Shown here: in pieces, positions 1,941-50,766 of the stretch | How the letters are laid out: every line of letters begins with the position of its first letter | How positions within the stretch are numbered: the first letter of the stretch is position 1 | Source: Patescibacteria group bacterium | GTDB taxonomy: Bacteria; Patescibacteriota; JAHJAL01 | Direction of reading: 5' to 3' | DNA length: 64,000 bases | Assembly (NCBI GenBank): GCA_041648895.1 | Contig: JBAZOB010000002.1 | Location: 826 to 64,825 of the forward strand | Position numbers and translations under genes: made by a program | The notes under the pieces: generated by a model | Database searches by the model: none | What the model saw: only the letters and a program-made list of their open reading frames with translations | Told to the model about the DNA's origin: nothing

Positions 1941-1976
1941 TGTCATCCCCGCCTTGAGCGGGGATCTCATCAATAA
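1941..1976. repeat. Short palindromic element of the TGTCATCCCCGCC...GGCGGGGAT repeat family (copy upstream of the GIY-YIG gene)
   Basis: The sequence tgtcatccccgccttgagcggggatctcatcaataa forms a hairpin and is closely related to copies at 2358, 12320, 16994 and 50662. Confidence 0.7.
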
Positions 1977-2046
1977 TTAATAAAAACAATAATTATATTT
2001 AATATTAATATTACTAAAATAAAAATACTAAAAAATATCAAGTCAA

Positions 2047-2343
2047 ATGCAAAAATTCTATTACGTCTACATTATGACAAATAAATACAACAAAATCTTG
2101 TACACTGGTATCACGAATAACCTTGTAAGGAGAATCTATGAACATAAAACAAGCACAATTAATAGTTTCACCAGTAAGTACAAATTAACTAAACTGATTT
2201 ATTATGAAGTTCATGAGGACGTTAATGTAGCCATAAACCGAGAAAAAAGATTAAAAAAATGGGGTCGGTCTTGGAAATTTGAATTAATACTAAAACAAAA
2301 TCCTGGGTTAGGTGATCTTTATTATGATGTTCTAAATTGGTAA
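2047..2343 (+). CDS. GIY-YIG nuclease superfamily protein (small stand-alone URI-domain protein)
   Basis: 'KFYYVYIMTNKYNKILYTGITNNLVRRIYEHK' matches the GIY-YIG motif pattern. The 98-aa gene is bracketed by MITE-like repeats on both sides. Confidence 0.75.
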   Translation: MQKFYYVYIMTNKYNKILYTGITNNLVRRIYEHKTSTINSFTSKYKLTKLIYYEVHEDVNVAINREKRLKKWGRSWKFELILKQNPGLGDLYYDVLNW

Positions 2344-2357
2344 ATAATCTTGGAATA

Positions 2358-2509
2358 TGTCATCCCCGCCTTCCGGGGTCCCCGCAAACTCTATTGATTT
2401 GTGGGGTGGGTTAGCGGGGATCTCATCATCAAGACTGTAATATACGCGTTGCATATAAGATCCCCGCTCAAGGCGGGGATGACACAGAAGAGAAGGCGGG
2501 GATGACAAA
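2358..2509. repeat. Composite MITE-like palindromic element of the TGTCATCC...GGATGACA family. It also contains a 45-nt segment that is the reverse complement of a segment in the copy at 8658.
   Basis: Terminal inverted repeats tgtcatccccgcc / ggcggggatgaca. The interior is about 85% identical to the copy at 12320-12407, and the tail ggcggggatgaca is duplicated. Confidence 0.7.
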
Positions 2510-2535
2510 ATAATCATCATTAATCATATTGATTG

Positions 2536-3834
2536 TTAGTTCTTGCGAATCTCCCCTTCCAATCCCCAATCCATCGCTTTGGTTATTTTTACTGGAATCA
2601 ATTTTCCAATTAATTCCTTCTTCCCCTCCAAATGCACCGGTTTTAAACCTTCCGTATAGGCCACCAACCGGCCGCGTTGATATTTGTGTACCAGCACATC
2701 AATGATTTGACCGACTAATTTCTTATTCTTGGCCAAAATAATTTTTCCCAGCACCTCATTGAGCCAATATTTACGCTTTTTCTTCTCGGCTTGGCTGACA
2801 TCATCTTCTAACTTGCTGGCCGCCGTTTTGGGACGGGGTGAATACTGGGCAATAAAAGCCATGTCAAATTGCACCCGCTCGAAAATATCCACGCTTTCCG
2901 CAAATTGCTCCCTGGTTTCTCCCGGAAAACCGACAATTAAATCAGTGGTAATGGTTACATCCGGAATCCATTTTTTAATTTTATCCACCAATACCAGATA
3001 ATCTTCCCGCGTATATTTACGATTCATTTTTCGGATAATTTCATTGCTGCCGGCTTGAATGGGCAAATGAATATAGTTGCATAAATTGGCACGTTCACCC
3101 ACCAGTTTAATTAATTCATCTGACATATCTTTGGGATGAGAAGAGATAAAATATATTCTTTTTAGCTCCGCAATATCCGAAATTTGGCGTAACAAATCAA
3201 CAAAGTCGTTTTCATTTTTACCCTCATGCCAGTCATTGCCATAGGAATTAACATTTTGCCCCAGCAGAGTTAACTCGACACAACCATCTTTGGCCAACTG
3301 TTCGGCTTCAGCGATAATATCGGTTTTCGGCCGTGACACCTCCCGCCCCCGCGTGTAAGGGACGGCGCAATAACTGCAAAAATTATTGCACCCAGTCATG
3401 ATGGGTAAATAAGCTGAAAATGAATTAGTATTTTGCGGAATAACCTGTAGATAATGATCATACTTATCTTTTGGCAACTCGTTGATCATTTTCCACTCGA
3501 ACAAATATTTTGGCAAATCAATCATCCGATCAATCGGCAAACATATATCAAATCGTCCTTTTCCTAATAATTTCTTCCAGATTTTATCCGACACCAAACA
3601 TCCGGTCGCTACTATTCTGGGTCGTTTTTTACTTTTGGCCAACTCGGTAATTTTACCATATGTTCTATCCTCCGCCATTTGTCGGACACTGCAACTGTTA
3701 ATTATCACTACATCTGCACTCTTACTCGTCTTGGACTTTTTTAATCCGCTATTTAACAAAATTGCCCCAATCCGCTCCGAATCAGCGTGGTTCATCTGAC
3801 AACCAAAAGTGATAATGTGGAAAGTTCTTGCCAT
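2536..3834 (-). CDS. miaB: MiaB-like tRNA methylthiotransferase (radical SAM MTTase with TRAM domain)
   Basis: N-terminal MTTase motif 'FHIITFGCQMNHADSE' and the radical-SAM CxxxCxxC 'CNNFCSYCAVPYTRGRE'. Length is 432 aa and the gene is adjacent to miaA. The MiaB versus RimO distinction cannot be made by eye. Confidence 0.65.
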   Translation of the reverse strand: MARTFHIITFGCQMNHADSERIGAILLNSGLKKSKTSKSADVVIINSCSVRQMAEDRTYGKITELAKSKKRPRIVATGCLVSDKIWKKLLGKGRFDICLPIDRMIDLPKYLFEWKMINELPKDKYDHYLQVIPQNTNSFSAYLPIMTGCNNFCSYCAVPYTRGREVSRPKTDIIAEAEQLAKDGCVELTLLGQNVNSYGNDWHEGKNENDFVDLLRQISDIAELKRIYFISSHPKDMSDELIKLVGERANLCNYIHLPIQAGSNEIIRKMNRKYTREDYLVLVDKIKKWIPDVTITTDLIVGFPGETREQFAESVDIFERVQFDMAFIAQYSPRPKTAASKLEDDVSQAEKKKRKYWLNEVLGKIILAKNKKLVGQIIDVLVHKYQRGRLVAYTEGLKPVHLEGKKELIGKLIPVKITKAMDWGLEGEIRKN

Positions 3835-3884
3835 AAATAATACTTAAATGAAAATATTCATCAGTATTATTATATTAGATATTT

Positions 3885-4289
3885 TTATTTTTCTGAAACT
3901 ATCTTTTTATATTGATCATATGTTTTTTGCGCCTTGATCATTTTGGCAAAAGATCCTGCATCGTTTTTTAAATCTTCTTGCAGATAATTCAACAACTCAT
4001 TGACCACCGCCGATATTTGATTTTTACCCTTGGAATGCTCCAAGGACTCAATAATAAACTCCCTCTTTTGCAGCGCTTTGGCAATCTTATCAGAGTACAT
4101 TTTTTTCGTTTTTTTATTCGTCTCCATCACTCCCAAATTCTTGGCCGCCATTGCTTCTTTTATCATATTCGTGGCCATTCGGTAACTAATATCCTGTCCC
4201 TCTTTGGCATATTCATGACTTCTCTTCCCAAAAACCAAGTCATTGGCCAATTCTCGAGGTCGATCCATGTCGCTCATTTTACCAATCAT
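3885..4289 (-). CDS. Hypothetical protein (134 aa, Lys-rich)
   Basis: Clean ORF in a gene-dense context. No recognisable motif. Confidence 0.4.
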   Translation of the reverse strand: MIGKMSDMDRPRELANDLVFGKRSHEYAKEGQDISYRMATNMIKEAMAAKNLGVMETNKKTKKMYSDKIAKALQKREFIIESLEHSKGKNQISAVVNELLNYLQEDLKNDAGSFAKMIKAQKTYDQYKKIVSEK

Positions 4290-4405
4290 AATTACTCCTA
4301 ATAAAATAATAAATTCTCGGCCATCAAAAGCCCCGCCATTCCAATAAAAAAACTTCTCATTAAACTAATAATGAGAAGTTATTAAATTACGCTTTACCAA
4401 TCACA

Positions 4406-6217: not shown

Positions 6218-6264
6218 ATTTTCTCCTTGGTTAATTACTTTATAATTAAATTTCGTCTTATTTT

Positions 6265-6312
6265 TGTCATCCTGGAGGCGGAAGCGTTGCGTTCCGGCAT
6301 CCAGGATCCAGG
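6265..6312. repeat. Palindromic element (variant of the TGTCATCC family) inserted between the thrS leader terminator and the thrS start
   Basis: The sequence tgtcatcctggaggcggaagcgttgcgttccggcatccaggatcca is an imperfect palindrome with the same tgtcatcc terminus as the main family. A related variant lies at 11694-11745. Confidence 0.5.
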
Positions 6313-6335
6313 CTTTATTAATGAAATCTACAAAT

Positions 6336-6545: not shown

Positions 6546-6549
6546 ATTT

Positions 6550-6578
6550 AGTATACACCAATAATTAATTGCCATCAA
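6550..6578 (-). promoter_or_regulatory. Putative sigma70-type promoter for the thrS leader (TTGATG-17nt-TATACT on the minus strand)
   Basis: Hexamer and spacing match, positioned at the 5' end of the ~330-nt leader. Confidence 0.35.
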
Positions 6579-6585
6579 TCAACCA

Positions 6586-8657: not shown

Positions 8658-8724
8658 TGTCATCCCCGCTAACCCACCCCACAAATCAATAGAGTTTGCG
8701 GGGACCCCGGAAGGCGGGGATGAC
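8658..8724. repeat. MITE-like palindromic element (TGTCATCC family). Its interior is the reverse complement of a segment of the 2358-2509 copy.
   Basis: The sequence is tgtcatccccgctaacccaccccacaaatcaatagagtttgcggggaccccggaaggcggggatgaca. Flanking direct tgacaa/tgtcat motifs are present. Confidence 0.65.
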
Positions 8725-8773
8725 AGCGATTATTGTCATTCTTGTCATTTGTGATTAATTCCATTATAGACAA

Positions 8774-8837: not shown

Positions 8838-11672
8838 ATGATTGATAAAATTACCATCAAAGGGGCCAGGGAACACAATTTAAAGAATATTGATATCGAA
8901 ATTCCCAAAAACAAGTTAGTGGTTATCACCGGTCTATCCGGTTCCGGCAAATCTTCTTTAGCTTTTGACACCATCTATGCCGAAGGCCAAAGAAGATATG
9001 TAGAATCCCTGTCCGCCTACGCTCGCCAGTTTTTAGGCATCATGGAAAAGCCCGACGTTGACAAGATTGAAGGCTTGTCCCCGGCCATTTCCATCGATCA
9101 AAAATCCGCCTCTTCCAACCCTCGTTCCACTGTTGGCACCATTACGGAGATATACGACTATCTCCGTTTGTTATTTGCCCGAGTAGGGGAGCCGCATTGT
9201 CCGCAGTGTGGTCAACCCATTTCCTCGCAGACTATCAGTCAAATCGCCGATCAGGTATTGCAAATTCCCGCCAAAACCAAAATCGTTATTTTGGCGCCAT
9301 TGGTCATCGCTCAAAAAGGAGAGCATAAAAATACATTAGCGGAAATAAAAAAAGCCGGCTTTGTCCGTGTCCGCATCAATGGTGATATTTTAGACATCAA
9401 CGAAACCATTGTTTTAGATAAGCAAAAAAAACATACCATCGAAATCGTCGTTGATCGTTTGATTATTGATAAAAAAAATCTAGATTTTCGCACCCGACTG
9501 GTTGAATCACTAGAAACCGCTCTCAACTATGGTAATGGTCTGGTTAATGTATTATTGCTTGATAAAAATGAAATTCAAACTTTTTCGGAGCGCTTTGCCT
9601 GTCCGACTTGTGGCATCAATCTTCCCGAAATAAACCCGCGTATTTTTTCTTTCAACAATCCCCAGGGTGCCTGCCCTGGTTGTACCGGTTTAGGCACTCG
9701 CTTGGAAGTTGATACCGACCTGATCTTCCCTAATCCAAAATTAACTATCGCCGAAGGCGGCATTGGCCCCTGGAGCAAAACTTCCGGCCAGCAAAACTGG
9801 CACATGCGTATTTTGGGGACTGTGGCCGGGGCTCAGGGTTTTAATCTCGACACCCCCATCAATAAATTATCTGATAAAGTGATCGATATTATTCTTCATG
9901 GCACGGGCGACCAGAAATATTTAGTCAAAAATCCCACTCCCTACGGGAAAGTTAAAGAATATGAGACCAATTATGAAGGTGTCATTCCCTCCTTGTTACG
10001 TCAGCATCGAGATACTACCAGCGACTATGTCCGCCAGGAAATTGAAAAATACATGACTATCAAAGTTTGTCCAGTTTGTCAGGGTCGTCGTCTCAAACCC
10101 GAATCTTTGGCCGTGACCATTGCCAAAAAGAATATTATCGAAGTTACCGAAATGGATATCCGTTCCTTGGCCAAGTTTTTTGCGGGGCTAAAGTTAAATG
10201 AACAACAAACTCAAATTGCTCGCCAGATCCTCAAAGAAATCAACGAGCGAATCGGTTTTATGCTCAACGTTGGTTTAAGTTATCTGACCCTGCACCGTAC
10301 CGCCAACACTCTTTCCGGCGGGGAAGCCCAACGTATCCGCCTCGCCACCCAGATAGGTTCTTCCCTGACCGGTGTCATGTATATTCTCGATGAGCCATCC
10401 ATTGGCCTACACCAACGTGATAATAGTAAATTAATCGATACTCTGAAAGCATTACGCGACATTGGTAATTCGATTATTGTCGTCGAACATGACGAAGAAA
10501 CCATGTTGTCCGCCGACCAGTTGATCGATATCGGCCCGGGCGCCGGTACTCGCGGCGGAGAAGTGATTGCCCAAGGTACCCCCGCCGAAATCATGAAAAA
10601 CAAAAATTCTCTCACCGGCCAATATTTATCTGGAAAAAAGAGCATCGCCATCCCCAGTGGTCGGCGTAAATCCACCGGTAAATCGATTGAAATTATCGGC
10701 GCCACTGAACATAATCTACAAAATATTAATGTCAAAATCCCCCTTGGGCAATTTGTTTGTGTCACCGGCGTCTCCGGATCCGGCAAATCGACTCTGATCC
10801 ACAGCATTCTTTCTAAATACTTGGCCAAATACTTTTATCGCGCCAAAGAACGCCCTGGTAAATACAAAGAAATCAAAGGAGTGGCCAATATCGACAAAGT
10901 AGTTACCATTGATCAATCGCCCATTGGTCGTACCCCTCGCTCCAATCCAGCCACCTACACCGGCGCCTTTACCATTATTCGTGATCTATTTGCCAACACT
11001 CCCGAGGCCAAAATGCGCGGCTACAAAACCGGTCGTTTTTCCTTCAATGTCAAAGGTGGTCGCTGTGAAAACTGTCGTGGAGACGGTTCCATCAAAATTG
11101 AAATGCACTTTTTGCCCGATGTCTATATCAAATGTCCCGAATGCCAAGGCAAGCGTTACAACCTGGAGGCGCTGGAAATATTTTACAAAGGTAAAACCAT
11201 TGCCGACGTCCTGGAAATGACCGCCGAAGAGGCCTATACTTTTTTCAAAAACATTCCCGCCCTGGAACGCAAACTCAAAATCCTCAATGATGTTGGTTTG
11301 AGCTACTTACAGCTGGGCCAATCGGCCAATACCCTTTCCGGCGGTGAAGCCCAACGCATCAAACTAGCCTCCGAACTCTCCCGCCGCGCCACTGGCCGCA
11401 CCCTCTACATTCTCGACGAGCCCACCATTGGCCTACACTACGACGATGTGGCCAATCTCCTCAAGGTCCTGGCCCGCTTAATCCGTAAAGGCAACACCAT
11501 TTTGGTCATCGAACACAATCTCGATGTCATCAAAACAGCCGACCACATTATTGACCTTGGTCCCGAAGGCGGCGACCAAGGCGGCCGCATCATCGCCCAA
11601 GGTACTCCCGAAGAAGTGGCCAAAGTCAAAGAGTCCTATACCGGCCAGTATTTGCGGAAGATATTGAAGTAA
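8838..11672 (+). CDS. uvrA: Excinuclease ABC subunit A
   Basis: Two ABC ATPase modules ('[14 protein letters not shown]', '[10 protein letters not shown]', 'LSGGEAQRI' twice) and zinc-finger Cys clusters. Length is 944 aa. Confidence 0.95.
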
Positions 11673-11693: not shown

Positions 11694-11745
11694 TGTCATC
11701 CTGGACCCTAAGCGAGTCAGCGAGCGCTAGGGATCCAGGACCCCT
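11694..11745. repeat. Palindromic element (TGTCATCC-terminus variant) immediately after the uvrA stop. It may function as a terminator.
   Basis: The sequence is tgtcatcctggaccctaagcgagtcagcgagcgctagggatccaggac. It is related to the element at 6265-6312. Confidence 0.5.
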
Positions 11746-11947: not shown

Positions 11948-12154
11948 ATGTTACTATCAGATGTTGGGCGAGAAAAATATCTCGCCAAAAAAGCAGAAAA
12001 AAGAAGAAAAAAAGAAGAGGAAAAAAGAAGAAAAGAAGAGGAAAAAAGAAGAACTGATAAGCAGAAAAACGGAAACGGAAAAAAGTTCACTGATCTGGGG
12101 GCATATGGCCTCTGGCGAGGGGACCTTTTAGAAGTTCCTCCTAATAACAATTAA
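11948..12154 (+). CDS. Small highly charged Lys/Glu/Arg-rich protein (68 aa). Low confidence: the ORF lies on a purine-rich tandem DNA repeat.
   Basis: Strong Shine-Dalgarno AAGGAGG 9 nt upstream of the ATG. 'KKAEKRRKKEEEKRRKEEEKRR' is encoded by a tandem gaagaggaaaaaagaagaaaa repeat. A terminator hairpin follows. Confidence 0.3.
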   Translation: MLLSDVGREKYLAKKAEKRRKKEEEKRRKEEEKRRTDKQKNGNGKKFTDLGAYGLWRGDLLEVPPNNN

Positions 12155-12165
12155 TACAAAAAAGA

Positions 12166-12193
12166 TCCCGGGAGCAAAATGTTCCCGGGTTTT
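12166..12193 (+). terminator. Rho-independent terminator-like hairpin (tcccgggagcaaaatgttcccggg + TTTT)
   Basis: GC stem with a T-run, directly after the small ORF. Confidence 0.45.
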
Positions 12194-12319: not shown

Positions 12320-12407
12320 TGTCATCCCCGCCTTGAGCGGGGAACCCATCATCAAGAATATAATCAGCGCGTTGCATAAGAGATCCCCGCTCAAGGCGGG
12401 GATGACA
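12320..12407. repeat. MITE-like palindromic element (TGTCATCC...GGATGACA family)
   Basis: The sequence runs tgtcatccccgccttgagcggggaacccatcatcaagaa...gcgcgttgcataagagatccccgctcaaggcggggatgaca. Closest relative is the interior of the 2358-2509 copy. Confidence 0.7.
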
Positions 12408-12461
12408 TGAACCTTAGTTAATTAGAACAACTCATTAATTATCTATTAATTATCCGAAGTT

Positions 12462-15487: not shown

Positions 15488-15502
15488 TCACCCCTAATTA
15501 AA

Positions 15503-15670
15503 AATTACAAATTTACGAGTGGCGTGAACTAGTTCTAATATCATCCTAATTATTGGTTTATAACCTGTATGAGCGTGCATAAATAATACTGACCTAGCCT
15601 GAGCGAGTTTTATAAACCAATAATTAGGATGATATTAGAACTAGTTCACGCCACTCGTAAATTTGTAATT
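15503..15670. repeat. ~168-bp near-perfect palindrome (family 2) in the divergent intergenic region. It has a conserved asymmetric core, ttggtttataacctgtatgagcg...cctgagcgagttttataaaccaa.
   Basis: The arms acgagtggcgtgaactagttctaatatcatcctaattattgg and its exact reverse complement flank a ~50-nt non-palindromic core. The core is shared with the element at 19503-19682. Confidence 0.7.
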
Positions 15671-16945: not shown

Positions 16946-16993
16946 TCAATGAATAATTAATAATGAATGAGTTGTACTAATTAGTCGTTCCCC

Positions 16994-17098
16994 TGTCATC
17001 CCCGACCGGAAGCGGAGCGCTCCGGTTATCGGGGATCTCATCAATAAGACGTTTAACAAAACTTAATGATGAGATCCCCGCTCAAGGCGGGGATGACA
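16994..17098. repeat. MITE-like palindromic element (TGTCATCC...GGATGACA family), >95% identical to the copy at 50662-50766
   Basis: The sequence runs cctgtcatccccgaccggaagcggagcgctccggttatcggggatctcatcaataag...gatgagatccccgctcaaggcggggatgaca. It is flanked by partially inverted gagttgtactaattag / ttaattagcacaactcat sequences. Confidence 0.75.
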
Positions 17099-17160
17099 TG
17101 AGGGAGATGTTTAATTAGCACAACTCATTCATTATTAATTATTCATTATTAATTATTTAC

Positions 17161-17964: not shown

Positions 17965-19521
17965 ATGAATAAATTCTACATCACTACTTCCATTGTCTAT
18001 GCCACCACCAAGCCCCACGTCGGGTTTGCCATGGAATTGTTTCAAGCTGACGCTATTGCCCGCCTGCATCGCCTGTATGGGCACGATGTTTTTTTCTTAA
18101 GTGGCACTGACGAAAACGGCTTAAAAAATTATCGGAAGGCCAAAGAGTTGGGCATTAGTCCTCAAGAGCATGTTGATGAAGTGAGTAAATTAGTGAAGGA
18201 TTTTGCTGATAGTCACCAAGTATCACTGACCGATTTCATCCGCACCACTGATCAAAAGCGACATTGGCCGGCCGCCCAAAAACTTTGGCAAATATTGTGC
18301 GACAAGAATTTGATAGAAAAAAAGAAATACTCCGGTCTCTATTGTGTGGGTTGCGAAAAATTTATGAAAGAAACTGAGCTTGATGCCGCCGGGAACTGTC
18401 CGCTCCATCACCAGAAACCCGAACCGCAATCCGTTGAAAACTATTTTTTCAAACTGTCACAATTTTCCGAAACCATCTACCAGAAGATAAAAAACAACGA
18501 AATAAATATCATACCCGGTCCTCGTCGTAATGAAATTTTACAAGTCATCGAAAATGGTTTGGAAGACGTCAGTTTCTCCCGTGAAAAATCTCAATTACCT
18601 TGGGGGATACCGGTTCCCAATGATCCGGAACACGTCATGTACGTCTGGTGTGATGCTTTGACTAACTATATTTCCGCCCTGGGATATGCTACCAATGATG
18701 ATAAATTTCAGCACTATTGGCCGGCCGATGTTCATTTTATCGGTAAGGACATTATCCGTTTTCACGCCGGTATTTGGCCCGGCATGCTCTTGGCGGCCGA
18801 CTTACCTTTGCCAAAAAACATTCTCGTCCATGGCTTTATTCATTCCGGCGGTCAGCGCATGAGCAAAACTACCGGCAACGTCATTGATCCCGTGGAAATA
18901 TCAACCAAATACGGCCCCGAAGCGCTGCGCCTTATACTACTCAAAGAAATTCCCACCTTCGGCGATGGCGATCTAACCATGGACAGAATTGGTGAAATAT
19001 ATCACAGCGAATTAGCTAATAAACTGGGGAATCTTGTCTCCCGAGTAATTGCCATGAATAATAAATATTTTGCCGGCCAAATTCCGGCGGGTAATTACGA
19101 TCAAATAATCAATTTTAGTCTTCCCGACCCCCGCCAATATCTGGAAGGCCAAAACAAATTTGGTCAAATTGATAAATATCTACATTCAACCTGGGAGATT
19201 ATTGAAGCCGCCAATCAATTTGTTGACCACCAAAAACCCTGGGAATTGGCCAAAAACCCCGATCAAACCCAACTCACAACCGTAATACTTAATCTTCTCG
19301 AAACCATTCGCCTCATCGCCATGCTCCTTGAACCAATTTCTCCCCATACTTCTCAAAAAATCCTGGCCGCTATTAATCAAGATTATATCGACAGTAGTCA
19401 CCATCAAACCGATCCCGATAAATATCATCAATTATTACAATGGGGCGGCCTCAAACAACAAGTTAGCATTAAATTAGATCAACCACTATTTCCCCGTCTG
19501 GAATTAGAAATTAGAAATTAA
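17965..19521 (+). CDS. metG: Methionine--tRNA ligase
   Basis: Class I aaRS with a KMSKS-like 'KMSKTTGNVIDP', a zinc knuckle 'CVGCEKF...CPLHH', and an anticodon-binding helical domain. Length is 518 aa. Confidence 0.9.
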   Translation: MNKFYITTSIVYATTKPHVGFAMELFQADAIARLHRLYGHDVFFLSGTDENGLKNYRKAKELGISPQEHVDEVSKLVKDFADSHQVSLTDFIRTTDQKRHWPAAQKLWQILCDKNLIEKKKYSGLYCVGCEKFMKETELDAAGNCPLHHQKPEPQSVENYFFKLSQFSETIYQKIKNNEINIIPGPRRNEILQVIENGLEDVSFSREKSQLPWGIPVPNDPEHVMYVWCDALTNYISALGYATNDDKFQHYWPADVHFIGKDIIRFHAGIWPGMLLAADLPLPKNILVHGFIHSGGQRMSKTTGNVIDPVEISTKYGPEALRLILLKEIPTFGDGDLTMDRIGEIYHSELANKLGNLVSRVIAMNNKYFAGQIPAGNYDQIINFSLPDPRQYLEGQNKFGQIDKYLHSTWEIIEAANQFVDHQKPWELAKNPDQTQLTTVILNLLETIRLIAMLLEPISPHTSQKILAAINQDYIDSSHHQTDPDKYHQLLQWGGLKQQVSIKLDQPLFPRLELEIRN

Positions 19522-19682
19522 CGAGTTGTGTGAATTAATTTTTATATCATTCAGATTATTGGTTTATAACCTGTATGAGCGTTTCTAAATAATACTGACC
19601 AAGCCTGAGCGAGTTTTATAAACCAATAATCTGAATGATATAAAAATTAATTCACACAACTCGTTAATTTCTAATTTCTAAT
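19503..19682. repeat. ~180-bp near-perfect palindrome (family 2) whose left arm overlaps the last codons and stop of metG and whose right arm ends at the next start codon
   Basis: The arms aattagaaattagaaattaacgagttgtgtgaattaatttttatatcattcagattattgg and its reverse complement flank the same conserved core as 15503-15670. The arms are unrelated between the two copies. Confidence 0.7.
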
Positions 19683-19686
19683 TAAA

Positions 19687-32673: not shown

Positions 32674-34503
32674 CTATATTTTTTTTAGTAACTCCCTTGC
32701 TTCGCTATTATTATCATCCATTTTTAGTGCCTCATTGAGCTCTTTTTTCGCTTCATCATTCCTGCCGTTCTCTATTAAAACTCGTCCCAAAAAAGTTCTA
32801 ACCCAGGTATTATTTGGTTCAAGATTTTTACATCTTTGAGCAGATTTTAAAGTATTCTTAGTATCACCAAGCTGCATAAAGGCGTGACCCTTATCGTACT
32901 CAGCCCACATCATATTTGGATCAATTATTATTGCTTTATCCAAAAATTCTAAAGCTAATCTTGATTTACCCTCTTTCAAATATTGAGAACCTTCATCTTT
33001 ATATCGATTAACATCTGATTTGAGAAATTTTACCTCGTCTAAATTAGGATTATTGCTATTTACATCTCGGTAGTATTTCATCGCCTCATCATAATCACCG
33101 ATACGAGTTAATATCTCAGCCATAGTAATTTTCACATATGGATTATTCGGAATTTGGTGCAAAGCCGCTTTTTGGAATTCCAATGCATCATCATATTTCA
33201 TCGTTTTTAGTAAAATTGTTGCTGAATCAGCCAACAACCATGGTTCGCCTGGATTCTCTTGACGCGCTTTCATAATATATTTTTCGGCGACTGCATAAAA
33301 ACTCGATTTCAACATTTTAATTGCTTTAGCATGATTACCGGGCTGTATAGTGGGTCTTACCTCAAGGCCAACTTTCCAAGAATGAGCATCTATTTTTGTC
33401 TCAACTTGCGACATATCAATGATGGTTCTATGTTTTCGTGTACTATTAAGATTACTATGCAATGTTTCCACGTTTTTCTGTCTTTTTTTCTCGTCTATTC
33501 TTGTTTCGTGGCTAATGTGATGACAAAAAGCTGAAGGACATGGAACAATGTAGTTTCCCAAGCTCAAAAGTTGCGCAGCCAAAATATCATCTTCAGCTCC
33601 CCAGCCCTTGATTCTTTCGTCATATCCCACCCCAATCTTGATCAAATCTTCTTTTTTGGCAGCAATATTTAATCCCCAGAAAAAGCTATAAGGACCCCAT
33701 TCCCCATGATCAATCCATATATCTTTAGTTTGGCCAAATCTTTTCAAATAATCATAATCAGATAAATGATCATAACACCATCTACCATCTTGTTCTAAAT
33801 CATACGGTAAATTAGGTAAATTACCCTTCAAATTCTCCAAAGAAATTTTTGGATCATCCATTTCAATATGGCCGCGTGCGCCAAACATAATAATATTATC
33901 AAGCTTCTCAAACCTCTTAGCATATTCCTCAATACTATTTGGATTAAGCACCACATCTGGATCATGAAAAATAATATGGCTATTCTTGGCCATATTAACA
34001 CCAGTATATCTGGCTTTTATTGGACCACCATTTTCTTGGCGGCACACTTTAATATTTAAATTTTTAACTAAGCCCTTATCAAATAATTCTTGCACTGCAT
34101 CAGATATATGACTCTCGCCCCTTGTTGATCCATCATCAACTACAACAACTTCCAATCTATCGTTATATTTGTTATTAAACGTGCTCGCTTCGATAGATGA
34201 TAAACATTTTTGTAATCTTTCACCATTGTTATATGCAGGAATAACAATACTTATAGTAGTATTTTTTATTTCGACATTGGTCTCAAAAGATTGATATGGA
34301 TCTTCGGCTAATTTCGATCCAGTTTCCTTTTCATAGTATTTATCCAACTCGTCATAGTTATTACCAAGCTTTTCCAAAATTTCTTTTACTGATTTACCCT
34401 CCAAAGTCATTTGGTCGGCAGTCTTCCGTCTTTCTCGTATTAACTTTTCAATATTATCTGGTAATTTTTTATTTTCCTTTGTCTCATTATTTTCAATATT
34501 CAT
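32674..34503 (-). CDS. Family 2 glycosyltransferase (GT-A fold) with a C-terminal TPR repeat domain
   Basis: 'TISIVIPAYNNGERLQKCL', 'LEVVVVDDGSTRGE' and a DPD motif mark the GT2 domain. C-terminal TPRs include 'AEILTRIGDYDEAMKYYRDV'. Length is 609 aa. Confidence 0.7.
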   Translation of the reverse strand: MNIENNETKENKKLPDNIEKLIRERRKTADQMTLEGKSVKEILEKLGNNYDELDKYYEKETGSKLAEDPYQSFETNVEIKNTTISIVIPAYNNGERLQKCLSSIEASTFNNKYNDRLEVVVVDDGSTRGESHISDAVQELFDKGLVKNLNIKVCRQENGGPIKARYTGVNMAKNSHIIFHDPDVVLNPNSIEEYAKRFEKLDNIIMFGARGHIEMDDPKISLENLKGNLPNLPYDLEQDGRWCYDHLSDYDYLKRFGQTKDIWIDHGEWGPYSFFWGLNIAAKKEDLIKIGVGYDERIKGWGAEDDILAAQLLSLGNYIVPCPSAFCHHISHETRIDEKKRQKNVETLHSNLNSTRKHRTIIDMSQVETKIDAHSWKVGLEVRPTIQPGNHAKAIKMLKSSFYAVAEKYIMKARQENPGEPWLLADSATILLKTMKYDDALEFQKAALHQIPNNPYVKITMAEILTRIGDYDEAMKYYRDVNSNNPNLDEVKFLKSDVNRYKDEGSQYLKEGKSRLALEFLDKAIIIDPNMMWAEYDKGHAFMQLGDTKNTLKSAQRCKNLEPNNTWVRTFLGRVLIENGRNDEAKKELNEALKMDDNNSEARELLKKI

Positions 34504-34549
34504 ATTTCCAAGATTAAGTTCTTACGCATTTTACTTAAAATATTTAACA

Positions 34550-36133
34550 TCATCTTTGAACATCCGAAATAATTTTCATATCGCGCGCCAAGATTAATGA
34601 TGCCGCATGATTCTCATGATAAAACTTTTCCACTTCATAATTATATTCTAGCCCATACTGCTTTGCCATTTTAGACCAATCGGAGCGATTGAGATAATCA
34701 GCTGGGTCAAATTTGTCAGGAAATACTGTTATAAGATTTGCACAATAATTAGCTAATAGATGCCATTTACCGTGATCAGTTGGCAAAACATTATAACCCA
34801 TATTCCGTAATTGATCATTTCTCTCTATGTATCTGTCATAATCTTCAGCAGTCTTTTTAAAACCATGCAATGTTTTAATAATTTCTACCCAATCTTTGTC
34901 GGTAATAACAGAAGCATATTCTTTAAATTTATCCTCTGATACTGTTTTTAAATCTCTTAAGTCGCCGACAAGAAAATCATATTTTTCCCGCCTTTTCCAG
35001 TCCTCAATATCTCTTTTATATCTTTGCCAATCTAGATCTTCGATAGATTTTCTTATCAATTTAGATTTAGAAAACTTATCAGGAAATACCTGTTTTAAAC
35101 TGGCCAAGCTATATAAGTAATTACCTGGTTCCCCTTCCTTCCTCCACCCCAACGTATCTTCAAAAGAATAAAATATTTTTTCATTGATGTTTATTGCAGA
35201 AAATTTTTCTGAGCCTAACAGCACTTTAAGTTTAGGTAATTCAAAAGAAACATCATCCCATTCACAATTCTCTCTACCTAATATCTCAAACGTCTTTTTA
35301 AAATCTCTATTTATCTCTTCTACTTCATACGAAAACGGGAAAATTGGCCCCTCATTCAGATCTTCCCGGCTTGCCCTTCCACTCGACATTGATTTATGCT
35401 CAACCAAATTAAAAGTAGAATCCGAATTATTTTTTTCTTCTATTAAAGATCCAAATAAATCTTTTGCTTCTTTATTGTTGGCATCAATATTCATTGCAGC
35501 CTCTAATTCTTCTCTAGCTTCAGTCATCTTTCCATTCATTATCAAAGCCTTGCCCAAAAAAGTTCTAACCCAGGTATTATTTGGTTCAAGATTTTTACAT
35601 CTTTGAGCAGATTTTAATGCATTCTTAGTATCACCCAGCTGCATAAAGGCGTGACCCTTATCATACTCAGCCCACATCATATTTGGATCAATTACTAATG
35701 TTTTATCAAGATCATCAAGAGCTTTTTGCAATTTTCCCTCTTTTAAATATTTTGTACCCTGATCCTTATAATGATTGGATTGTTCATCAAGAAACTGCAA
35801 TTCTGATAAATTATGATTCAGCTCTCTAGCTGCATCATAATATTGTTTTGCTTGATCATATTGACCCATTCTGGCCAATATATCGCCCATACCAATTTTT
35901 ACATATGGATTATCAGGCATCATTTTCTCTGCTGATCCCTGAAGTTTTTTTGCTTCCTCATATCTAGATCTTTTAAGATATATAGATGCCATATCGTTCA
36001 TTATCCAAGGATCATCTGGATTGTAATGTAATGCTCTTTCTATTAATTTTTCTGCTTCTTTATAGTTCTCTTTTTTCAGCATTTTAACTGCTTCAGAATG
36101 ATTATCAATATTTGTTTTTGTTTCGATGTTCAT
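34550..36133 (-). CDS. TPR-repeat protein (N-terminal ~230-aa TPR module paralogous to the C-terminus of the adjacent GT2 gene) with a C-terminal domain of unknown function
   Basis: TPR helices. The stretch 'PNMMWAEYDKGHAFMQLGDTKNALKSAQRCKNLEPNNTWVRTFLG' is near-identical to the neighbouring gene. Length is 527 aa. Confidence 0.6.
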   Translation of the reverse strand: MNIETKTNIDNHSEAVKMLKKENYKEAEKLIERALHYNPDDPWIMNDMASIYLKRSRYEEAKKLQGSAEKMMPDNPYVKIGMGDILARMGQYDQAKQYYDAARELNHNLSELQFLDEQSNHYKDQGTKYLKEGKLQKALDDLDKTLVIDPNMMWAEYDKGHAFMQLGDTKNALKSAQRCKNLEPNNTWVRTFLGKALIMNGKMTEAREELEAAMNIDANNKEAKDLFGSLIEEKNNSDSTFNLVEHKSMSSGRASREDLNEGPIFPFSYEVEEINRDFKKTFEILGRENCEWDDVSFELPKLKVLLGSEKFSAININEKIFYSFEDTLGWRKEGEPGNYLYSLASLKQVFPDKFSKSKLIRKSIEDLDWQRYKRDIEDWKRREKYDFLVGDLRDLKTVSEDKFKEYASVITDKDWVEIIKTLHGFKKTAEDYDRYIERNDQLRNMGYNVLPTDHGKWHLLANYCANLITVFPDKFDPADYLNRSDWSKMAKQYGLEYNYEVEKFYHENHAASLILARDMKIISDVQR

Positions 36134-39641: not shown

Positions 39642-40397
39642 ATGGAACCAGTCATCTCACTATCGGCTGAGCCAATTGTGCACCTGGGAAGTCTACCAAT
39701 TACCAATACCTTGATAGTGTCCCTGGTTATTTCCGTTTCGCTGATTATTTTTAGTGTCATTTTTAATTTTTTTATTAAACCGGTCCCATCAGGTATCCAG
39801 AATATAATTGAATCGATATTTGAAGGCGCGCTGGATTTTATTGAATCTGTCTTGCAAGACCGCCAGTTGGCTTATCAATTTTTCCCGGTGGTTTTTACCA
39901 TCTTCCTTTTTGTTATTCTTTCCAACTGGATTGAAATTGTGCCTGGCCTGGGCAGCATTGGCATTTGGGGGGAACATCATGGAGAAACCGTCCTAATTCC
40001 CTTTATCCGTTCATCTTCCGCTGACATGAATGTGACTCTGGCCTTGGCGATCTCGGCCATGCTAGCCGTGCAAATATTTGGCACTGTTAAACTAGGTTTT
40101 AGTGAATACGCGGGCAAATTTCTGGTTAATCCATTCAAACAGCCATATATTATCGGTACTTTTGTGGGTTTACTGGAGATCGTCTCCGAATTTGCCAAGA
40201 TTATTTCTTTTTCCTTTCGTCTTTTTGGCAACATCTTTGCCGGCGAAGTCTTGCTTTTGGTTGTCGGCTTCCTTGTACCCTATATAATCCCTTTACCTTT
40301 TCTTTTTCTGGAAATATTTGTCGGCTTCATTCAGGCGCTGGTTTTTTCCATGCTGACGCTAGTGTTTATTAAAAGCGCGACGACAGCGCATCATTAG
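39642..40397 (+). CDS. atpB: ATP synthase F0 subunit a
   Basis: Essential Arg region 'FSFRLFGNIFAGEVLLLVV', 5-6 TM helices, 251 aa. Confidence 0.85.
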   Translation: MEPVISLSAEPIVHLGSLPITNTLIVSLVISVSLIIFSVIFNFFIKPVPSGIQNIIESIFEGALDFIESVLQDRQLAYQFFPVVFTIFLFVILSNWIEIVPGLGSIGIWGEHHGETVLIPFIRSSSADMNVTLALAISAMLAVQIFGTVKLGFSEYAGKFLVNPFKQPYIIGTFVGLLEIVSEFAKIISFSFRLFGNIFAGEVLLLVVGFLVPYIIPLPFLFLEIFVGFIQALVFSMLTLVFIKSATTAHH

Positions 40398-40407
40398 TCA
40401 TTAGTAA

Positions 40408-40662
<255 letters not shown>

Positions 40663-41699: not shown

Positions 41700-41769
41700 T
41701 AACTATTTATTAGTCACCAGCGTTAATAATTAGTCATTAGTCATTAGTCATTAGTAATTATTATTCATC

Positions 41770-45716: not shown

Positions 45717-45765
45717 TTGTTTAAGTTATATAAAATGAATTATTCATTCCACCTAGTTTATTAAT

Positions 45766-46616: not shown

Positions 46617-46759
46617 ATTATCGGTCAAAACTATTGGCTTGTCAGCCTTTCATCCCCGCCAGCCAGCGGGGATATTATATTTGACAATAACGGATATTCG
46701 ATATTATTGTATTAGATAAACATGGTTAACATTATGAAAACACCTATAAACTGAATATT

Positions 46760-47266: not shown

Positions 47267-47323
47267 TCATTATCATACTAATCAGATTTAGCGTTATTTT
47301 TTTATTTATTAACATATTAGACT

Positions 47324-48274
47324 ATGTCATTATCATTGCTTGAACAAAAAGAATTAGCTCCAGAAAATGGTTTGGACAATTTATCTAAAGAAAATTTTTA
47401 TTTTGAAAAAAATACTAAACCCGTTGACATTGCCCTAATCAGTTTTCTAGACCACAATCACCAAATGAATCCCGAGGAAGTATTGCGCAACGTCAGAATT
47501 AACTGCAAAAACATCAAAAATCTATCCCCATCAGATAACCGTAAAATTGATGGCTACTTTTTACCTAGTGACCCAACATTATATCAATCAACAAATCATG
47601 AATTCGTCGATTTTATAACTCAAAGCATCGCCGATGCATCGATTGACGCCCATCAAGCCGAAAATTTTATTTTCTATGATCAAGAAGGGTGCAAAGTACG
47701 AGAATACTTTTATCAAGAATTAGAAAAGAAAATTGATCGAAAAAATAAATTTAGAAAAAGCACGGCCATATATCATTTCGCCAGAGTAGGTAATAATTTA
47801 TCTGTTGACGCGAAGGTTTCTCAACCCGATGGTATTATTTTTGTCTGCATTGACCCCAACTTAATTGAACAATCATTGACCAAAATTGTTAAAAGTTATG
47901 GTTTTAAAAAATATCAAGTAGTTGGCTTGCCTGGTAGCGCTTATAGTATGGTCAGGCCCGAAACTAAGGAAATTTTAACAGATTATATAAAAAATTATCC
48001 TTTGGCCAGAGCCGTTTTTTGTTCACATGGGCCCTCTCCCGACCAGAAACAAGATGAGCCATGCTATAACTGTGGCGGTTATCAGCTCTTTGAACATATA
48101 ACTGGTATTGAAGCCTATCAACAAGCCAAGCGAGATTTGCAACAAGTCAAAAGCGAATTAAAGAAAAACAATATAACTAAAGTGGACACCGTCATCAACA
48201 TGGCGCAATATATGGGCCAAGGTAGCGCGGCAGATTCAAAACTCTATAAGGCAACGTTCGAAATTGTGGCTTAA
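47324..48274 (+). CDS. Hypothetical protein (316 aa). Its C-terminal half is a paralog of the 46185..46616 product (CxDPN and SH...CYNCGGYQL motifs).
   Basis: 'IIFVCIDPN' aligns with 'VVFCVDPR', 'GFKKY' with 'GIKKF', 'VRPET' with 'ARPES', and 'AVFCSHGP...CYNCGGYQLFE' with 'IILISHDKCGGYRLIE'. Confidence 0.5.
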   Translation: MSLSLLEQKELAPENGLDNLSKENFYFEKNTKPVDIALISFLDHNHQMNPEEVLRNVRINCKNIKNLSPSDNRKIDGYFLPSDPTLYQSTNHEFVDFITQSIADASIDAHQAENFIFYDQEGCKVREYFYQELEKKIDRKNKFRKSTAIYHFARVGNNLSVDAKVSQPDGIIFVCIDPNLIEQSLTKIVKSYGFKKYQVVGLPGSAYSMVRPETKEILTDYIKNYPLARAVFCSHGPSPDQKQDEPCYNCGGYQLFEHITGIEAYQQAKRDLQQVKSELKKNNITKVDTVINMAQYMGQGSAADSKLYKATFEIVA

Positions 48275-48287
48275 GCCCAAAATCTTG

Positions 48288-48740
48288 TCAATCAGTGAAA
48301 TCCCAGTGTAAAACTTTGACAATTTTCCGTCGGCCGCCATAGTCCCAGCCATGACGCACCACTTTTTTCAATTTCCAATTATTACTAATCGCTTTCTTGT
48401 CGCCGACATAGAATCCAATATGTGGATGCTTGTATCCAATTTGTTTACGTTCCCAAACCAAGACATCGCCTGCCTGGATATCCACCAAATCAACCTCATG
48501 CCAGCCATATTTAAGCATAGCCTCAATGGCCGCCTTCACGGTGGCTTTTTGTTCATCAATCAAATTATGCAATTTCAACACCCCCGTCACAAAGACCGCG
48601 CAGCTTAATTCGCCCCTATTTAAAATCTCTTTCTCTTGCTGATTATCATTCACCCATAACTCGCGGAACATCTCTGACCCGACCGCGTTGTTGATCATGG
48701 ATAAATAATTTTTTTTCTTATTTATATTTAAATTGTTCAT
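48288..48740 (-). CDS. NlpC/P60-superfamily-like papain-fold protein (putative cysteine peptidase/amidase)
   Basis: Candidate Cys nucleophile in 'GELSCAVFVTGV' and His in 'HPHIGFYVGDKKAISNN', similar to the NlpC/P60 'HVGIYxGNGxxIHA' region. No signal peptide seen. Confidence 0.4.
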   Translation of the reverse strand: MNNLNINKKKNYLSMINNAVGSEMFRELWVNDNQQEKEILNRGELSCAVFVTGVLKLHNLIDEQKATVKAAIEAMLKYGWHEVDLVDIQAGDVLVWERKQIGYKHPHIGFYVGDKKAISNNWKLKKVVRHGWDYGGRRKIVKVLHWDFTD

Positions 48741-48869
48741 AATCTAAATCTTATCATTTCTCATTCCTAATTTCTAATTCCTGATTTTATTTATCAATAA
48801 ATTGCATCCGCGACAAAAATTAACTAAAATAAATTATGTAACGTTTTCCATCCGTGAAGAAAGAAAAAC

Positions 48870-49796
48870 ATGATGATTAAAATAAAAAATTTAAGCAAAA
48901 ACTACGGTATTACCAAAGCCTTGGACGGTATTAGTTTTGAAGTCAATCAAGGTGAAATAGTTGGTTTACTTGGTCCAAATGGTGCCGGGAAAACCACCGC
49001 CATGCGTATTATCACCGGATTCTTGCCACCTACTAGTGGTCAAGTAGAAATTGATAATATCAATGTTGTTGAGCATCCCGAGAAAGTGCAAAGCCAAATC
49101 GGCTATTTACCCGAAACCGCCGCTCTCTATCATGATTTGTCCGTGCGTGAACATCTGGAATACGCCGCCGCCATTCATGGTCTGGTGGGTGACGAGCAAA
49201 AGCAAGCCATCAAAAATATCGCCCAGGCCTGCGGCATTGCTGATAAACTATATTTTGACGTCTCCGAATTATCCAAAGGTTACAAACAACGGGTCGCTTT
49301 AGCCCAGGCTCTCATCCATAATCCTAAAATTCTTATTCTCGATGAACCATCCACTGGACTCGATCCTAACCAAATAATTGAAATACGCGATCTGATCAAA
49401 AAACTTAGCGAAGAAAAAACCATCATCCTCTCCACTCACATCATGCAGGAAGTGGAAGCCCTTTGCAGCCGAGTGGTATTAATAAACAAAGGGAAAATCG
49501 TTGCCGACGGCTCGGTCGCCGAATTAAAACATGGCCAAAACGCCGTTCATCAAATCAACGTGACTATCAAAGGCAATCAAGAAGAAATCTGGCATCATCT
49601 CAAAAATATCGCCGGCATCACCAGCGCGCAACAAATCAAGCACCCCGACAAAGGTGTCGGTGTCTACACCATTAACGCCGATCAAGATATCCGCTCCGAC
49701 ATCAATAAAACCATGATCAAGGCCGGCTATGACATCCTCGAAATCGCCGCCAAAGAAAATACCATGGAAGATGTTTTTCATGAATTAACCAAATAG
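48870..49796 (+). CDS. ABC transporter ATP-binding protein (GldA-like ABC-2 exporter ATPase)
   Basis: Walker A 'GLLGPNGAGKTT', signature 'LSKGYKQRVALAQAL', Walker B 'ILILDEPSTGLD'. Length is 308 aa. Confidence 0.85.
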   Translation: MMIKIKNLSKNYGITKALDGISFEVNQGEIVGLLGPNGAGKTTAMRIITGFLPPTSGQVEIDNINVVEHPEKVQSQIGYLPETAALYHDLSVREHLEYAAAIHGLVGDEQKQAIKNIAQACGIADKLYFDVSELSKGYKQRVALAQALIHNPKILILDEPSTGLDPNQIIEIRDLIKKLSEEKTIILSTHIMQEVEALCSRVVLINKGKIVADGSVAELKHGQNAVHQINVTIKGNQEEIWHHLKNIAGITSAQQIKHPDKGVGVYTINADQDIRSDINKTMIKAGYDILEIAAKENTMEDVFHELTK

Positions 49797-49804
49797 AAGA
49801 TTAT

Positions 49805-49885
49805 GTGAGCAGTGAACAGTGAACAGTGAACAGTAAAAAACTGAATTACTTGTTATTTACTCACTGCTCACTGCTCACTGTTCAC
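49805..49885. repeat. 81-bp palindrome built from tandem GTGAACAG octamers, in the intergenic region between co-oriented ABC genes
   Basis: The sequence gtgagcagtgaacagtgaacagtgaacagtaaa...tttactcactgctcactgctcactgttcac forms a ~30-bp stem. Confidence 0.7.
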
Positions 49886-49905
49886 TTCTAACTTATCATT
49901 ATCAT

Positions 49906-50628
49906 ATGCCATCCAAATTAACTCAACTAAAAGCCATTATCCAAAAAGAGCTGCGAGTTTATTTCAACTCACCCATTGCCTATATCTTTTTAGTCGCCTT
50001 TTTGGGTTTTACTTTCTGGTTGTTTTTCCGTAATTTCTTCTTGGTTGGTCAGGCCGATGTGCAATACATGTTCGATGTTTTACCTTGGATCTACTTATTG
50101 CTTATCCCCGCCATGACCATGCGCCTCTGGGCGGAAGAAAAACGCGGTGGCACAATTGAAAATCTCTTAACTTCTTCCGCTCCCTTGTCCATCTCCGTTT
50201 TGGCCAAATTTATTGCCAGTTTAATTTTCTTGCTAATTACCCTGGCAGCCACTTTACCCCTGCCGCTTATTGTTTCTTCTTTAGGCCCGCTGGATTGGGG
50301 GGCCACCTTGGCTGCTTATCTGGGAGCGATTTTACTCGGCAGTAGCTATATAGCTCTGGGATTATTATTGAGCTCGATTACCAATAACCAAATCGTCGCC
50401 TACATTATCTCCTCTCTGGCTTGTTTCGCTTTATTTATCATTGCCCAACCGCTCGTGACTATTTCTTTGCCGGCCTTCATTATTCCAGTCGTCGACTTTA
50501 TTAGTTTCGGCTCCCACTATGATTCCATTGTCCGCGGCGTTGTCGACACCCGAGATTTAATATATTACCTTTCTTTTATTGGGTTAATGTTATATTTAAA
50601 TGCTTATGTTTTATTCGCAAAAAAATAA
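49906..50628 (+). CDS. ABC-2 family transporter permease (GldF-like)
   Basis: 6 TM helices, 240 aa, immediately downstream of the ABC ATPase. Confidence 0.7.
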   Translation: MPSKLTQLKAIIQKELRVYFNSPIAYIFLVAFLGFTFWLFFRNFFLVGQADVQYMFDVLPWIYLLLIPAMTMRLWAEEKRGGTIENLLTSSAPLSISVLAKFIASLIFLLITLAATLPLPLIVSSLGPLDWGATLAAYLGAILLGSSYIALGLLLSSITNNQIVAYIISSLACFALFIIAQPLVTISLPAFIIPVVDFISFGSHYDSIVRGVVDTRDLIYYLSFIGLMLYLNAYVLFAKK

Positions 50629-50661
50629 AAATTAATGAGTTGTGCTAATTAGTCGTTCCCC

Positions 50662-50766
50662 TGTCATCCCCGACCGGAAGCGGAGCGTTCCGGTTATCGG
50701 GGATCTCATCAATAAGGCGTTTAACAAAACTTAATGATGAGATCCCCGCTCAAGGCGGGGATGACA
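50662..50766. repeat. MITE-like palindromic element (TGTCATCC...GGATGACA family), >95% identical to the copy at 16994-17098
   Basis: Same ~105-bp sequence with 3 substitutions. It lies between the permease and gldG-like genes. Confidence 0.75.

Follow-up and report, generated by a model that had tools for sequence, protein, structure and literature searches.

Two described systems stand closest to the locus analysed here, a 64,000-nt stretch (the window; GC ~40%) of a metagenome-assembled genome (MAG) of Patescibacteria, a lineage of the candidate phyla radiation (CPR), in which a family of intergenic hairpin repeats accompanies ssn, a gene for a 98-aa GIY-YIG nuclease. The first of these systems, the CGTC-tagged repetitive extragenic palindromic sequences (REPs), was described by Di Nocera et al. 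(BMC Genomics 2013; PMC3733652) as units with a CGTC or TGTC tag, stems of 8-9 bp starting with AT, loops of 4-5 nt and a short tail with the consensus CCA, organised mainly as inverted dimers. Their hosts were Alphaproteobacteria, Micavibrio, Rickettsia (RPE-4/6), Wolbachia and Neisseria (dRS3); no tyrosine transposase was found beside them and, as the authors stressed, no dedicated enzyme was known for them in 2013 (PMC3733652).

The second system was reported by Chenal et al. (Nat Commun 2025; PMC11893778). In N. meningitidis the enzyme, SsnA, consists of 94 aa and has GIY-YIG as its only domain (CDD cd10448); it binds the NTS motif (CGTCATTCCCGCGMAVGCGGGAATCYRG) only as single-stranded DNA (ssDNA) and only on one strand, with the C after the palindrome as the key binding base. 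From the oligonucleotide lengths given, the cut falls 3 nt upstream of the motif, and cutting is abolished in the mutants Y6A, Y17A and E64A. An Ssn-related motif (SRM) lies near 71% of the Ssn homologues and on both sides of 42% of them. In Neisseria, SsnA lowers transformation by NTS-bearing DNA, and the authors likened the arrangement NTS-ssnA-NTS to an insertion sequence, proposing its domestication (PMC11893778). No later paper on Ssn mobility was found in the literature searched.

SRMs and CGTC/TGTC-tagged REPs are the same objects. Since the grammar of the repeat units in the window matches that of the REPs of 2013, and the layout of gene and repeats matches that reported in 2025 (PMC11893778), it is proposed that the window locus is an Ssn/SRM system in Patescibacteria, with the repeats as its cognate SRMs, a reading to which we give a probability of about 0.85 on comparative grounds. 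The repeats and the enzyme were known already, and what is new is the patescibacterial host and a set of motif variants that the published SRM pattern misses.

Anatomy of the repeats and of the ssn gene

With up to two mismatches allowed, TGTCATCCCCGCC is matched 17 times in the window against 1.04 matches expected, a number that none of 100 shuffles reached; copy counts here and below cover these 64 kb of genome. The exact head GTCATCC occurs 14 times (+ strand, 8; - strand, 6), always within the repeat loci listed in Table 1 and always preceded by T, which gives the tag TGTC. These 14 heads form one hairpin family at nine loci. All nine are intergenic, in a window of which 13% is intergenic (P ~1e-8), and they sit among housekeeping genes (miaA, a MiaB-like gene, thrS, uvrA, an Rpf-like gene, ksgA, ATP synthase and ABC transporter genes), so that the repeat family at nine intergenic loci claimed by the initial annotation stands. 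Four other matches, at 9980, 32271, 62368 and 62870, were considered as members and rejected, as they appear to be chance partial matches. In the window as a whole, Rfam returned only three tRNAs at gathering score. A cyanobacterial source, which heptamer repeats had suggested, was discarded, as only 2 HIP1 sites are present and the record of the identical protein names Patescibacteria.

The basic unit consists of an unpaired TGTC tag, ATCCCCGC, CTTGA, GCGGGGAT and a CTCATCA tail. In canonical units the stem has 8 bp and starts with AT, the loop has 5 nt, and a C stands immediately 3' of the palindrome; six of them have the stem ATCCCCGC and the loop CTTGA, with a mismatch in the closing A-T pair at 12320-12344 (GCGGGGAA). 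Variant units keep the AT-initiated stem around loops of 23-44 nt, in which long inner hairpins replace the short loop: the units at 2358 and 8658 hold a 44-nt insert, and those at 6265, 11694, 16994 and 50662 hold AGCG-rich palindromes. The tails read CTC(A), CCC or CCAG in the window, and CCAG, CCAT or CTCA in related loci. When folded as ssDNA and compared with shuffles, each unit or dimer forms a hairpin (z -3.2 to -8.4), in agreement with the dispersed hairpin-element family that had been proposed.

Single units are present at 1941, 6265 and 11694, and a unit without tag at 46648, together with four heads-out dimers, one at 2358-2484, one of 88 nt at 12320-12407 and two of 105 nt at 16994-17098 and 50662-50766, and one double-headed unit at 8658-8725. 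The palindromic termini first attributed to all copies are both present only at these last five loci; those at 1941-1972, 6265-6312 and 11694-11745 are single-headed and that at 46648-46675 has no GTC tag. The two 105-nt dimers, each centred in an outer inverted repeat, are identical at 103 of 105 positions, as the claim of more than 95% identity had it, and their similarity spills into the flanks (204 nt at 90%; left flank 37/42, 88%; right flank 44/57, 77%). The segment shared in opposite orientation between the copies at 2358 and 8658 proved longer than the 45 nt originally noticed, 2358-2421 being the exact reverse complement of 8662-8725 (64 nt at 100%).

The ssn gene (2047-2343) is bracketed on both sides, by a unit 74 nt upstream and by a dimer that begins 14 nt downstream. 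It had been taken for the only gene so placed, which does not hold: uvrA (8838-11672) also lies between two units, one 112 nt upstream (8658-8725) and another 21 nt downstream (11694-11745). Its layout is the 'repeat-gene-repeat' arrangement that, in Neisseria, Chenal et al. associate with a reduced transformation of the gene inside it (PMC11893778).

In the 98-aa protein, the GIY-YIG domain (Pfam PF01541) spans residues 5-77 with an E value of 1.2e-16 and is the sole Pfam match. The spacing of Y8, Y19 and E66 (11 and 47 residues) equals that of Y6, Y17 and E64 of N. meningitidis SsnA, and these three residues, together with G21, R29 and H33, are invariant across a 15-sequence alignment (A1). 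The database record identical to the protein is entitled 'GIY-YIG nuclease family protein [Patescibacteria group bacterium]' and belongs to a contig of 64,977 nt, nearly all of which the window takes up. A sequence search of the PDB with this protein gave no match, and NCBIfam gave only a sub-threshold one, to a model for group I intron endonucleases (16.7 bits, where the cut-off is 56).

Table 1. Repeat units and the ssn gene in the window (z: folding as ssDNA against shuffles)
Feature	Position	Strand	Details
Canonical SRM unit upstream of ssn	1941..1972	+	stem ATCCCCGC/GCGGGGAT, loop CTTGA, tail CTCATCA; single TGTCATCC head, facing away from the gene; -9.5 kcal/mol, z -4.6
ssn, 98-aa single-domain GIY-YIG nuclease	2047..2343	+	Pfam PF01541; Y8, Y19, R29, H33, E66
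SRM unit with the loop swapped for a 44-nt hairpin-containing insert; left half of the dimer downstream of ssn	2358..2421	+	
Canonical SRM unit, head at 2484; right half of the dimer downstream of ssn	2453..2484	-	2413-2484 88% identical to 12336-12407
Truncated 13-nt head, 10 nt past the preceding unit	2495..2507	-	GGCGGGGATGACA
Single variant unit	6265..6312	+	one TGTCATCC head, TGTC + ATCCTGGA stem around inner hairpin GGCGGAAGCGTTGCGTTCCGGC, tail CCAGG; z -4.8
Double-headed unit, TGTC at both ends, 112 nt upstream of uvrA	8658..8725	.	holds the 64 nt of 2358-2421, inverted
Single variant unit, 21 nt past the uvrA stop codon	11694..11745	+	TGTCATCC head, ATCCTGGA-type stem, AGCG-rich inner hairpin; z -3.2
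Heads-out dimer, 88 nt	12320..12407	.	two canonical units, 24-nt spacer; -31.5 kcal/mol, z -8.4
Heads-out heterodimer, 105 nt	16994..17098	.	left unit with stem ATCCCCGA and inner palindrome, right unit canonical; z -7.7; centred in an outer 47-nt inverted repeat (16948-16994 / 17101-17147)
Degenerate unit without GTC tag (TTTCATCC)	46648..46675	+	TTTCATCCCCGC-CAGCCA-GCGGGGAT; z -4.0
Second heterodimer, 105 nt	50662..50766	.	103/105 identical to 16994-17098; flanks related to those of the first copy

The gene-repeat pairing in other genomes

A search of a one-genome-per-species collection for the exact 24-mer TGTCATCCCCGCCTTGAGCGGGGA found it at 44 loci, with locus GC from 39 to 70%, in hosts that include Fibrobacter, Zixibacteria, Peregrinibacteria, Rickettsiales, Micavibrio and other Alpha- and Gammaproteobacteria. 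A C directly follows the palindrome in 50 of the 51 occurrences of the 24-mer, spacers and flanks are not conserved, and the loci with two copies are heads-out dimers in all six cases. Three of the 24-mer loci (L002, L008 and L015) were matched by tblastn with the window protein, and in them the homologous gene lies between T/CGTCATCC hairpins in the layout (T/C)GTCATCC-hairpin...hairpin-GGATGAC(A/G), forming a cassette of ~400-490 nt.

The pairing is not restricted to this stem. Proteins of NTS-flanked genes are matched by the window protein in BLASTP with E values of 1e-25 to 1e-32 at 40-45% identity, and at two loci (L083 and L105) exact matches to the NTS consensus stand heads-out on both sides of the gene. 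Analogous units with other stems (GTCATTGCGAG and GTCATTCCGAG) accompany the homologues of a Curtissbacteria contig and of Thermodesulfovibrio. Among 50 close homologues obtained from IMG/VR by a scan with alignment A1, a forward unit is present within 350 nt upstream in 24, a reverse unit downstream in 27, and both in 21, with the nearest units placed, relative to the gene, at about -64 and at +26 to +45. Among lineages the stems covary (ATTCCCGC, ATGGCCGGG, ACCCCGGA, ATTCCAGC and others), with tag and tail constant. The initial annotation had offered a partner nuclease as one role for the GIY-YIG gene, and this suggestion gains support from the homologues in other phyla flanked by the same heads-out units, and from the published evidence that Ssn binds such motifs as ssDNA and cuts beside them (PMC11893778).

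Six Ssn proteins that were compared are 41-62% identical to each other (the window protein, 44-57% to the others), and the GC of the ssn open reading frame (ORF) goes from 0.29 in the window to 0.575 in L002 and 0.62 in L008. Taking into account that the 24-mer is identical while the proteins have diverged and ORF GC differs so widely, the unchanged motif is read here as pointing to a constraint on the DNA motif itself and not to recent horizontal transfer.

Some further observations concern these loci. The GC of the ssn ORF is below that of its locus in the window (0.29 vs 0.40), L002 (0.575 vs 0.67), L047 (0.33 vs 0.39) and L055 (0.31 vs 0.42), and in the GC-rich genomes (L002, L008) AT-rich borders of 20-35 nt surround the cassette. 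At L055 (Thermodesulfovibrio sp. 3907-1M, CP144373.1; 1454-2910), 26 GTCAT(T/C)CCGAG heads are gathered in 1.46 kb round one ssn homologue, in a cluster that adjoins two tRNA-gene-like sequences and whose units are missed by the published SRM pattern.

Identity, rival explanations and mobility

Several points weigh against placing the window locus in the Ssn/SRM system. The published SRM pattern, HGTCWYN(0-2)YYVSBRHN(0-5)WNVSBRGN(0-2)RNCYNB, has 0 matches in the window; the assignment of the protein to the Ssn family is indirect, drawn from homology and architecture; its binding and cutting are predicted by homology; the copy numbers of units and of ssn are those of 64 kb only; and Patescibacteria are not mentioned by Chenal et al. 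(PMC11893778). The pattern misses the window units because those with the CTTGA loop differ in stem/loop register. Around ssn in L008 it finds both flanking units; in L015 it finds the upstream one, and the downstream unit there carries the exact 24-mer of the window. Since a pattern-matching unit and the window 24-mer flank the same gene in L015, the window motif can be filed as a loop variant of the SRM outside the published pattern, which by its stem and loop length would belong to class CGTC-2 of Di Nocera et al.

The window shares with the published Ssn and NTS/SRM (PMC11893778) a single-domain GIY-YIG protein of ~94-98 aa with the same Tyr-Tyr-Glu spacing, the oriented (C/T)GTC tag, the C after the palindrome, and repeats that flank the gene on either side and are scattered through intergenic DNA; it differs in its host, the 5-nt CTTGA loop, some long inner hairpins and the heterodimers. 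With the CGTC/TGTC REPs (PMC3733652) it has in common the TGTC tag, the 8-bp stem starting with AT, the 5-nt loop, the short unpaired tail, the extragenic position and the prevalence of inverted dimers. However, the window tails read CTC(A), CCC or CCAG against the consensus CCA, the five phyla of the 2013 paper include no CPR host, and the window repeats flank ssn, while no dedicated enzyme was reported there. Free-standing homing endonucleases such as I-TevI and SegA resemble Ssn in their GIY-YIG catalytic domain and selfish-gene flavour, but they have an extra DNA-binding domain, cut double-stranded DNA at one cognate site and lack dispersed flanking hairpin repeats.

Whereas the anatomy of the units, their conservation and their orientation rule are visible in the DNA, the mechanism is proposed by homology to SsnA and is most likely as follows. 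When the DNA becomes single-stranded, for instance during replication, repair or uptake, a unit would fold into its 8-bp hairpin. Ssn would bind it solely in the orientation TGTC-stem-loop-stem-C, the predicted substrate being ssDNA with TGTCATCCCCGCCTTGAGCGGGGATCTCA, and would cut the motif strand ~3 nt 5' of the TGTC tag. Because the heads of the units point outward, the ssn cassette and every dimer would be cut just beyond both ends, the two predicted cuts being on opposite strands. In a CPR cell, the system may restrict ssDNA or modulate recombination, as in Neisseria, or it may serve to propagate the repeats.

Other explanations of the repeats have to be considered. That all loci are intergenic, several of them right after stop codons (11694, 46648), would suit terminators or RNA-stabilising stem-loops whose adjacency to a GIY-YIG gene is coincidental. 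Nevertheless, no T-run follows the stems, a terminator scan skips the units and yet finds classic terminators at 12167, 6362 and 4380, divergent promoter regions hold units too, units face either way with respect to genes, and a non-palindromic tag and tail conserved across phyla are not expected of terminators, all of which makes this explanation quite improbable. Highly improbable, too, is that the repeats are ordinary REPs or bacterial interspersed mosaic elements (BIMEs) moved by a Y1 HUH transposase (RAYT or IS200/IS605 TnpA) encoded elsewhere, with the GIY-YIG gene as a bystander. The REP/REPIN-RAYT systems do have an analogous layout, their extragenic hairpins forming inverted dimers and flanking the single-copy gene of an ssDNA-recognising enzyme, and their residence in the host appears long-term, as here. 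But their enzyme is a Y1 HUH transposase and not a GIY-YIG nuclease, their tag is GTAG and not TGTC, no tyrosine transposase accompanies CGTC REPs (PMC3733652), and the adjacency to a GIY-YIG gene recurs in about half of 50 independent loci. A transposase domain was found in none of the 30 window ORFs scanned, and the link to IS200/IS605 TnpA/TnpB suggested in the initial annotation is unnecessary. As the window comes from a MAG, collapsed or chimeric repeats might also be invoked; this is almost negligible, given that the copies lie in one contig between different housekeeping genes, with interiors and flanks that differ, and that the same motif occurs at 44 loci of unrelated assemblies.

A different question, compatible with the identity of the locus as an Ssn/SRM system, is whether SRM-ssn-SRM is an autonomous and currently active transposon for which Ssn acts as the transposase, the gene-less dimers being its MITEs (miniature inverted-repeat transposable elements). 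The insertion sequence (IS)-like layout with heads-out ends recurs in several phyla, an IS-like origin was raised by Chenal et al. (PMC11893778), and the gene-less dimers share the ends of the cassette, being heads-out in 6/6 dimers of other loci and 4/4 in the window. Moreover, the two 105-nt dimers are 98% identical with flanks at 77-88%, dimers are centred in outer palindromes, and related contigs differ at one site downstream of ssn, which is empty in L065, filled in L114 and L109, and filled with a flipped spacer in L070. Against this, target-site duplications, which the initial annotation had proposed to look for, are seen neither around the window copies nor around dimers in other genomes; no indels of at least 8 nt occur at SRM loci in the pairs L016/L028 (95.6% identical) and L008/L014 (97.3%); and ten near-identical strain-level Curtissbacteria contigs (L045-L054) have no repeat polymorphism. 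The activity demonstrated for Ssn is the cutting of one strand orientation only, with no strand transfer known (PMC11893778), and the protein divergence among hosts, with ORF GC from 0.29 to 0.62, indicates long residence and not recent spread. We regard the transposon as doubtful.

The polymorphic site deserves a closer description. In these IMG/VR contigs, 90-95% identical, the empty site of L065 (1826-1850) reads CCCACCCACCG followed by AGTTGGAGG, and the filled site of L114 (1821-1936) and L109 reads CCCACCCACCG-gc(TGTCATCC...GGATGACA)ccg-AGTTTGGGG, which makes it longer by 83 nt; L070 has the dimer at the same site with its spacer inverted. The boundaries lie 2-3 nt outside the heads, near the SsnA cut position, with a 5-nt alignment ambiguity that comes from a direct repeat, CACCG. 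Since this repeat would also permit a hairpin-stimulated slippage deletion, which explains the site equally well, this single case does not settle mobility versus loss. An automated indel scan over all 141 loci gave no further head-bounded insertions, and a metagenome scan with KsgA for relatives suitable for empty-site comparison gave nothing closer than 56% identity. In two 'Rhizobium sp. Q54' MAGs (97% over 4.8 kb), homology between L008:1489-1976 and L014:1-220 begins precisely with the SRM on the right of ssn, whose stems differ (CCCCGCG vs CCCGGCC); L014 has an unrelated 192 nt in place of the ssn cassette of L008 and is not a clean empty site.

The window repeats have in common with IS200/IS605 the recognition of hairpins in ssDNA, here predicted, the absence of target-site duplication and a very small size, but TnpA cleaves one and the same strand at its two ends and joins these again, whereas the window ends are inverted, with one cleavable end per strand, and no joining activity is known for Ssn. 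Classical MITEs derived from DDE elements are likewise short, non-coding, intergenic and present in many copies with terminal inverted repeats; unlike them, the window repeats have neither target-site duplication nor DDE parent, and each terminal repeat is itself a hairpin. The only gene with ends of this kind is ssn, a nuclease without known transposase activity.

Mobility of the repeats is thus plausible and unproven, and so are the statements that the family is 'recently active' and 'mobilised in trans', the window showing no target-site duplications and repeat positions being unchanged in two genome pairs. The one polymorphic dimer in relatives makes mobility or precise loss conceivable. 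As a tentative scheme, SRM dimers and also the cassette SRM-ssn-SRM could move, Ssn cuts ~3 nt outside the heads releasing a hairpin-ended segment, or seeding its copying, with insertion at the centres of other palindromes. If this were true, Ssn would be the nuclease of a new GIY-YIG/ssDNA transposon class in prokaryotes, and the repeats its MITEs.

Other repeats in the window and wider meaning

Repeats of other kinds are also present in the window. Two palindromes of ~180 nt, at 15503-15670 and 19502-19683, have arms of 61 and 68 nt that are 100% complementary within each copy, and a conserved 46-nt centre; because the arms are perfect and yet the copies are only ~83% alike, each of the ~11 differences has its compensating counterpart in the opposite arm. 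Their RNA fold reaches -96.7 kcal/mol (z -19). In Rfam the long palindrome gave only a sub-threshold match to a plant microRNA precursor, judged meaningless, and its centre and arm gave no exact match in viral contigs.

A second module, (A/C)(T/C)GAGTTGTG..AATTA with AT-rich runs, has 6 matches against 0.21 expected, at 12408-12440, 16948-16993 / 17099-17147 and 50620-50661 / 50767-50823, and as arms at 15496-15531 and 19500-19538. It constitutes the outer inverted repeat round the SRM dimers and also the outer arms of the two long palindromes. Its right arms all lie 25-60 nt upstream of gene starts on the + strand (12462, 15731, 17161, 19687, 50829), and the module may be a promoter or 5' untranslated region (5'-UTR) cassette.

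Inside the 716-nt gap after uvrA, a purine-rich low-complexity tract of the AAAAAAGAAG type with overlapping repeats (11987-12078) precedes a strong hairpin, similar to a terminator, at 12167-12189. Heptamer-like tandem runs are found at 49802-49895, 40389-40433 and 41718-41762, one being an (ACAGTGA)n inverted repeat between two genes and the others (AGTCATT)n upstream of genes. Finally, 32674-36133 holds two adjacent paralogous genes with tetratricopeptide repeats (TPR), 79% identical over a shared 300 nt; the first of them has a glycosyltransferase domain as well.

CPR bacteria are tiny-genome episymbionts, heavily dependent on DNA uptake. The identification of the window locus as an Ssn/SRM system would extend the host range of these enzymes and repeats to the candidate phyla radiation, and a single-strand-specific nuclease with recognition sites in the genome could matter for recombination control in such cells. 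Current censuses probably undercount Ssn/SRM, because the published pattern misses the widespread variant with the CTTGA loop as well as the long-loop variants. Moreover, an identical 24-nt motif accompanied by proteins of ~50% identity would constitute a natural data set for studying how Ssn reads its site, as well as an enzyme-site pair for ssDNA tools, and the empty, filled and flipped states of one site would offer a concrete handle on how these repeats spread.

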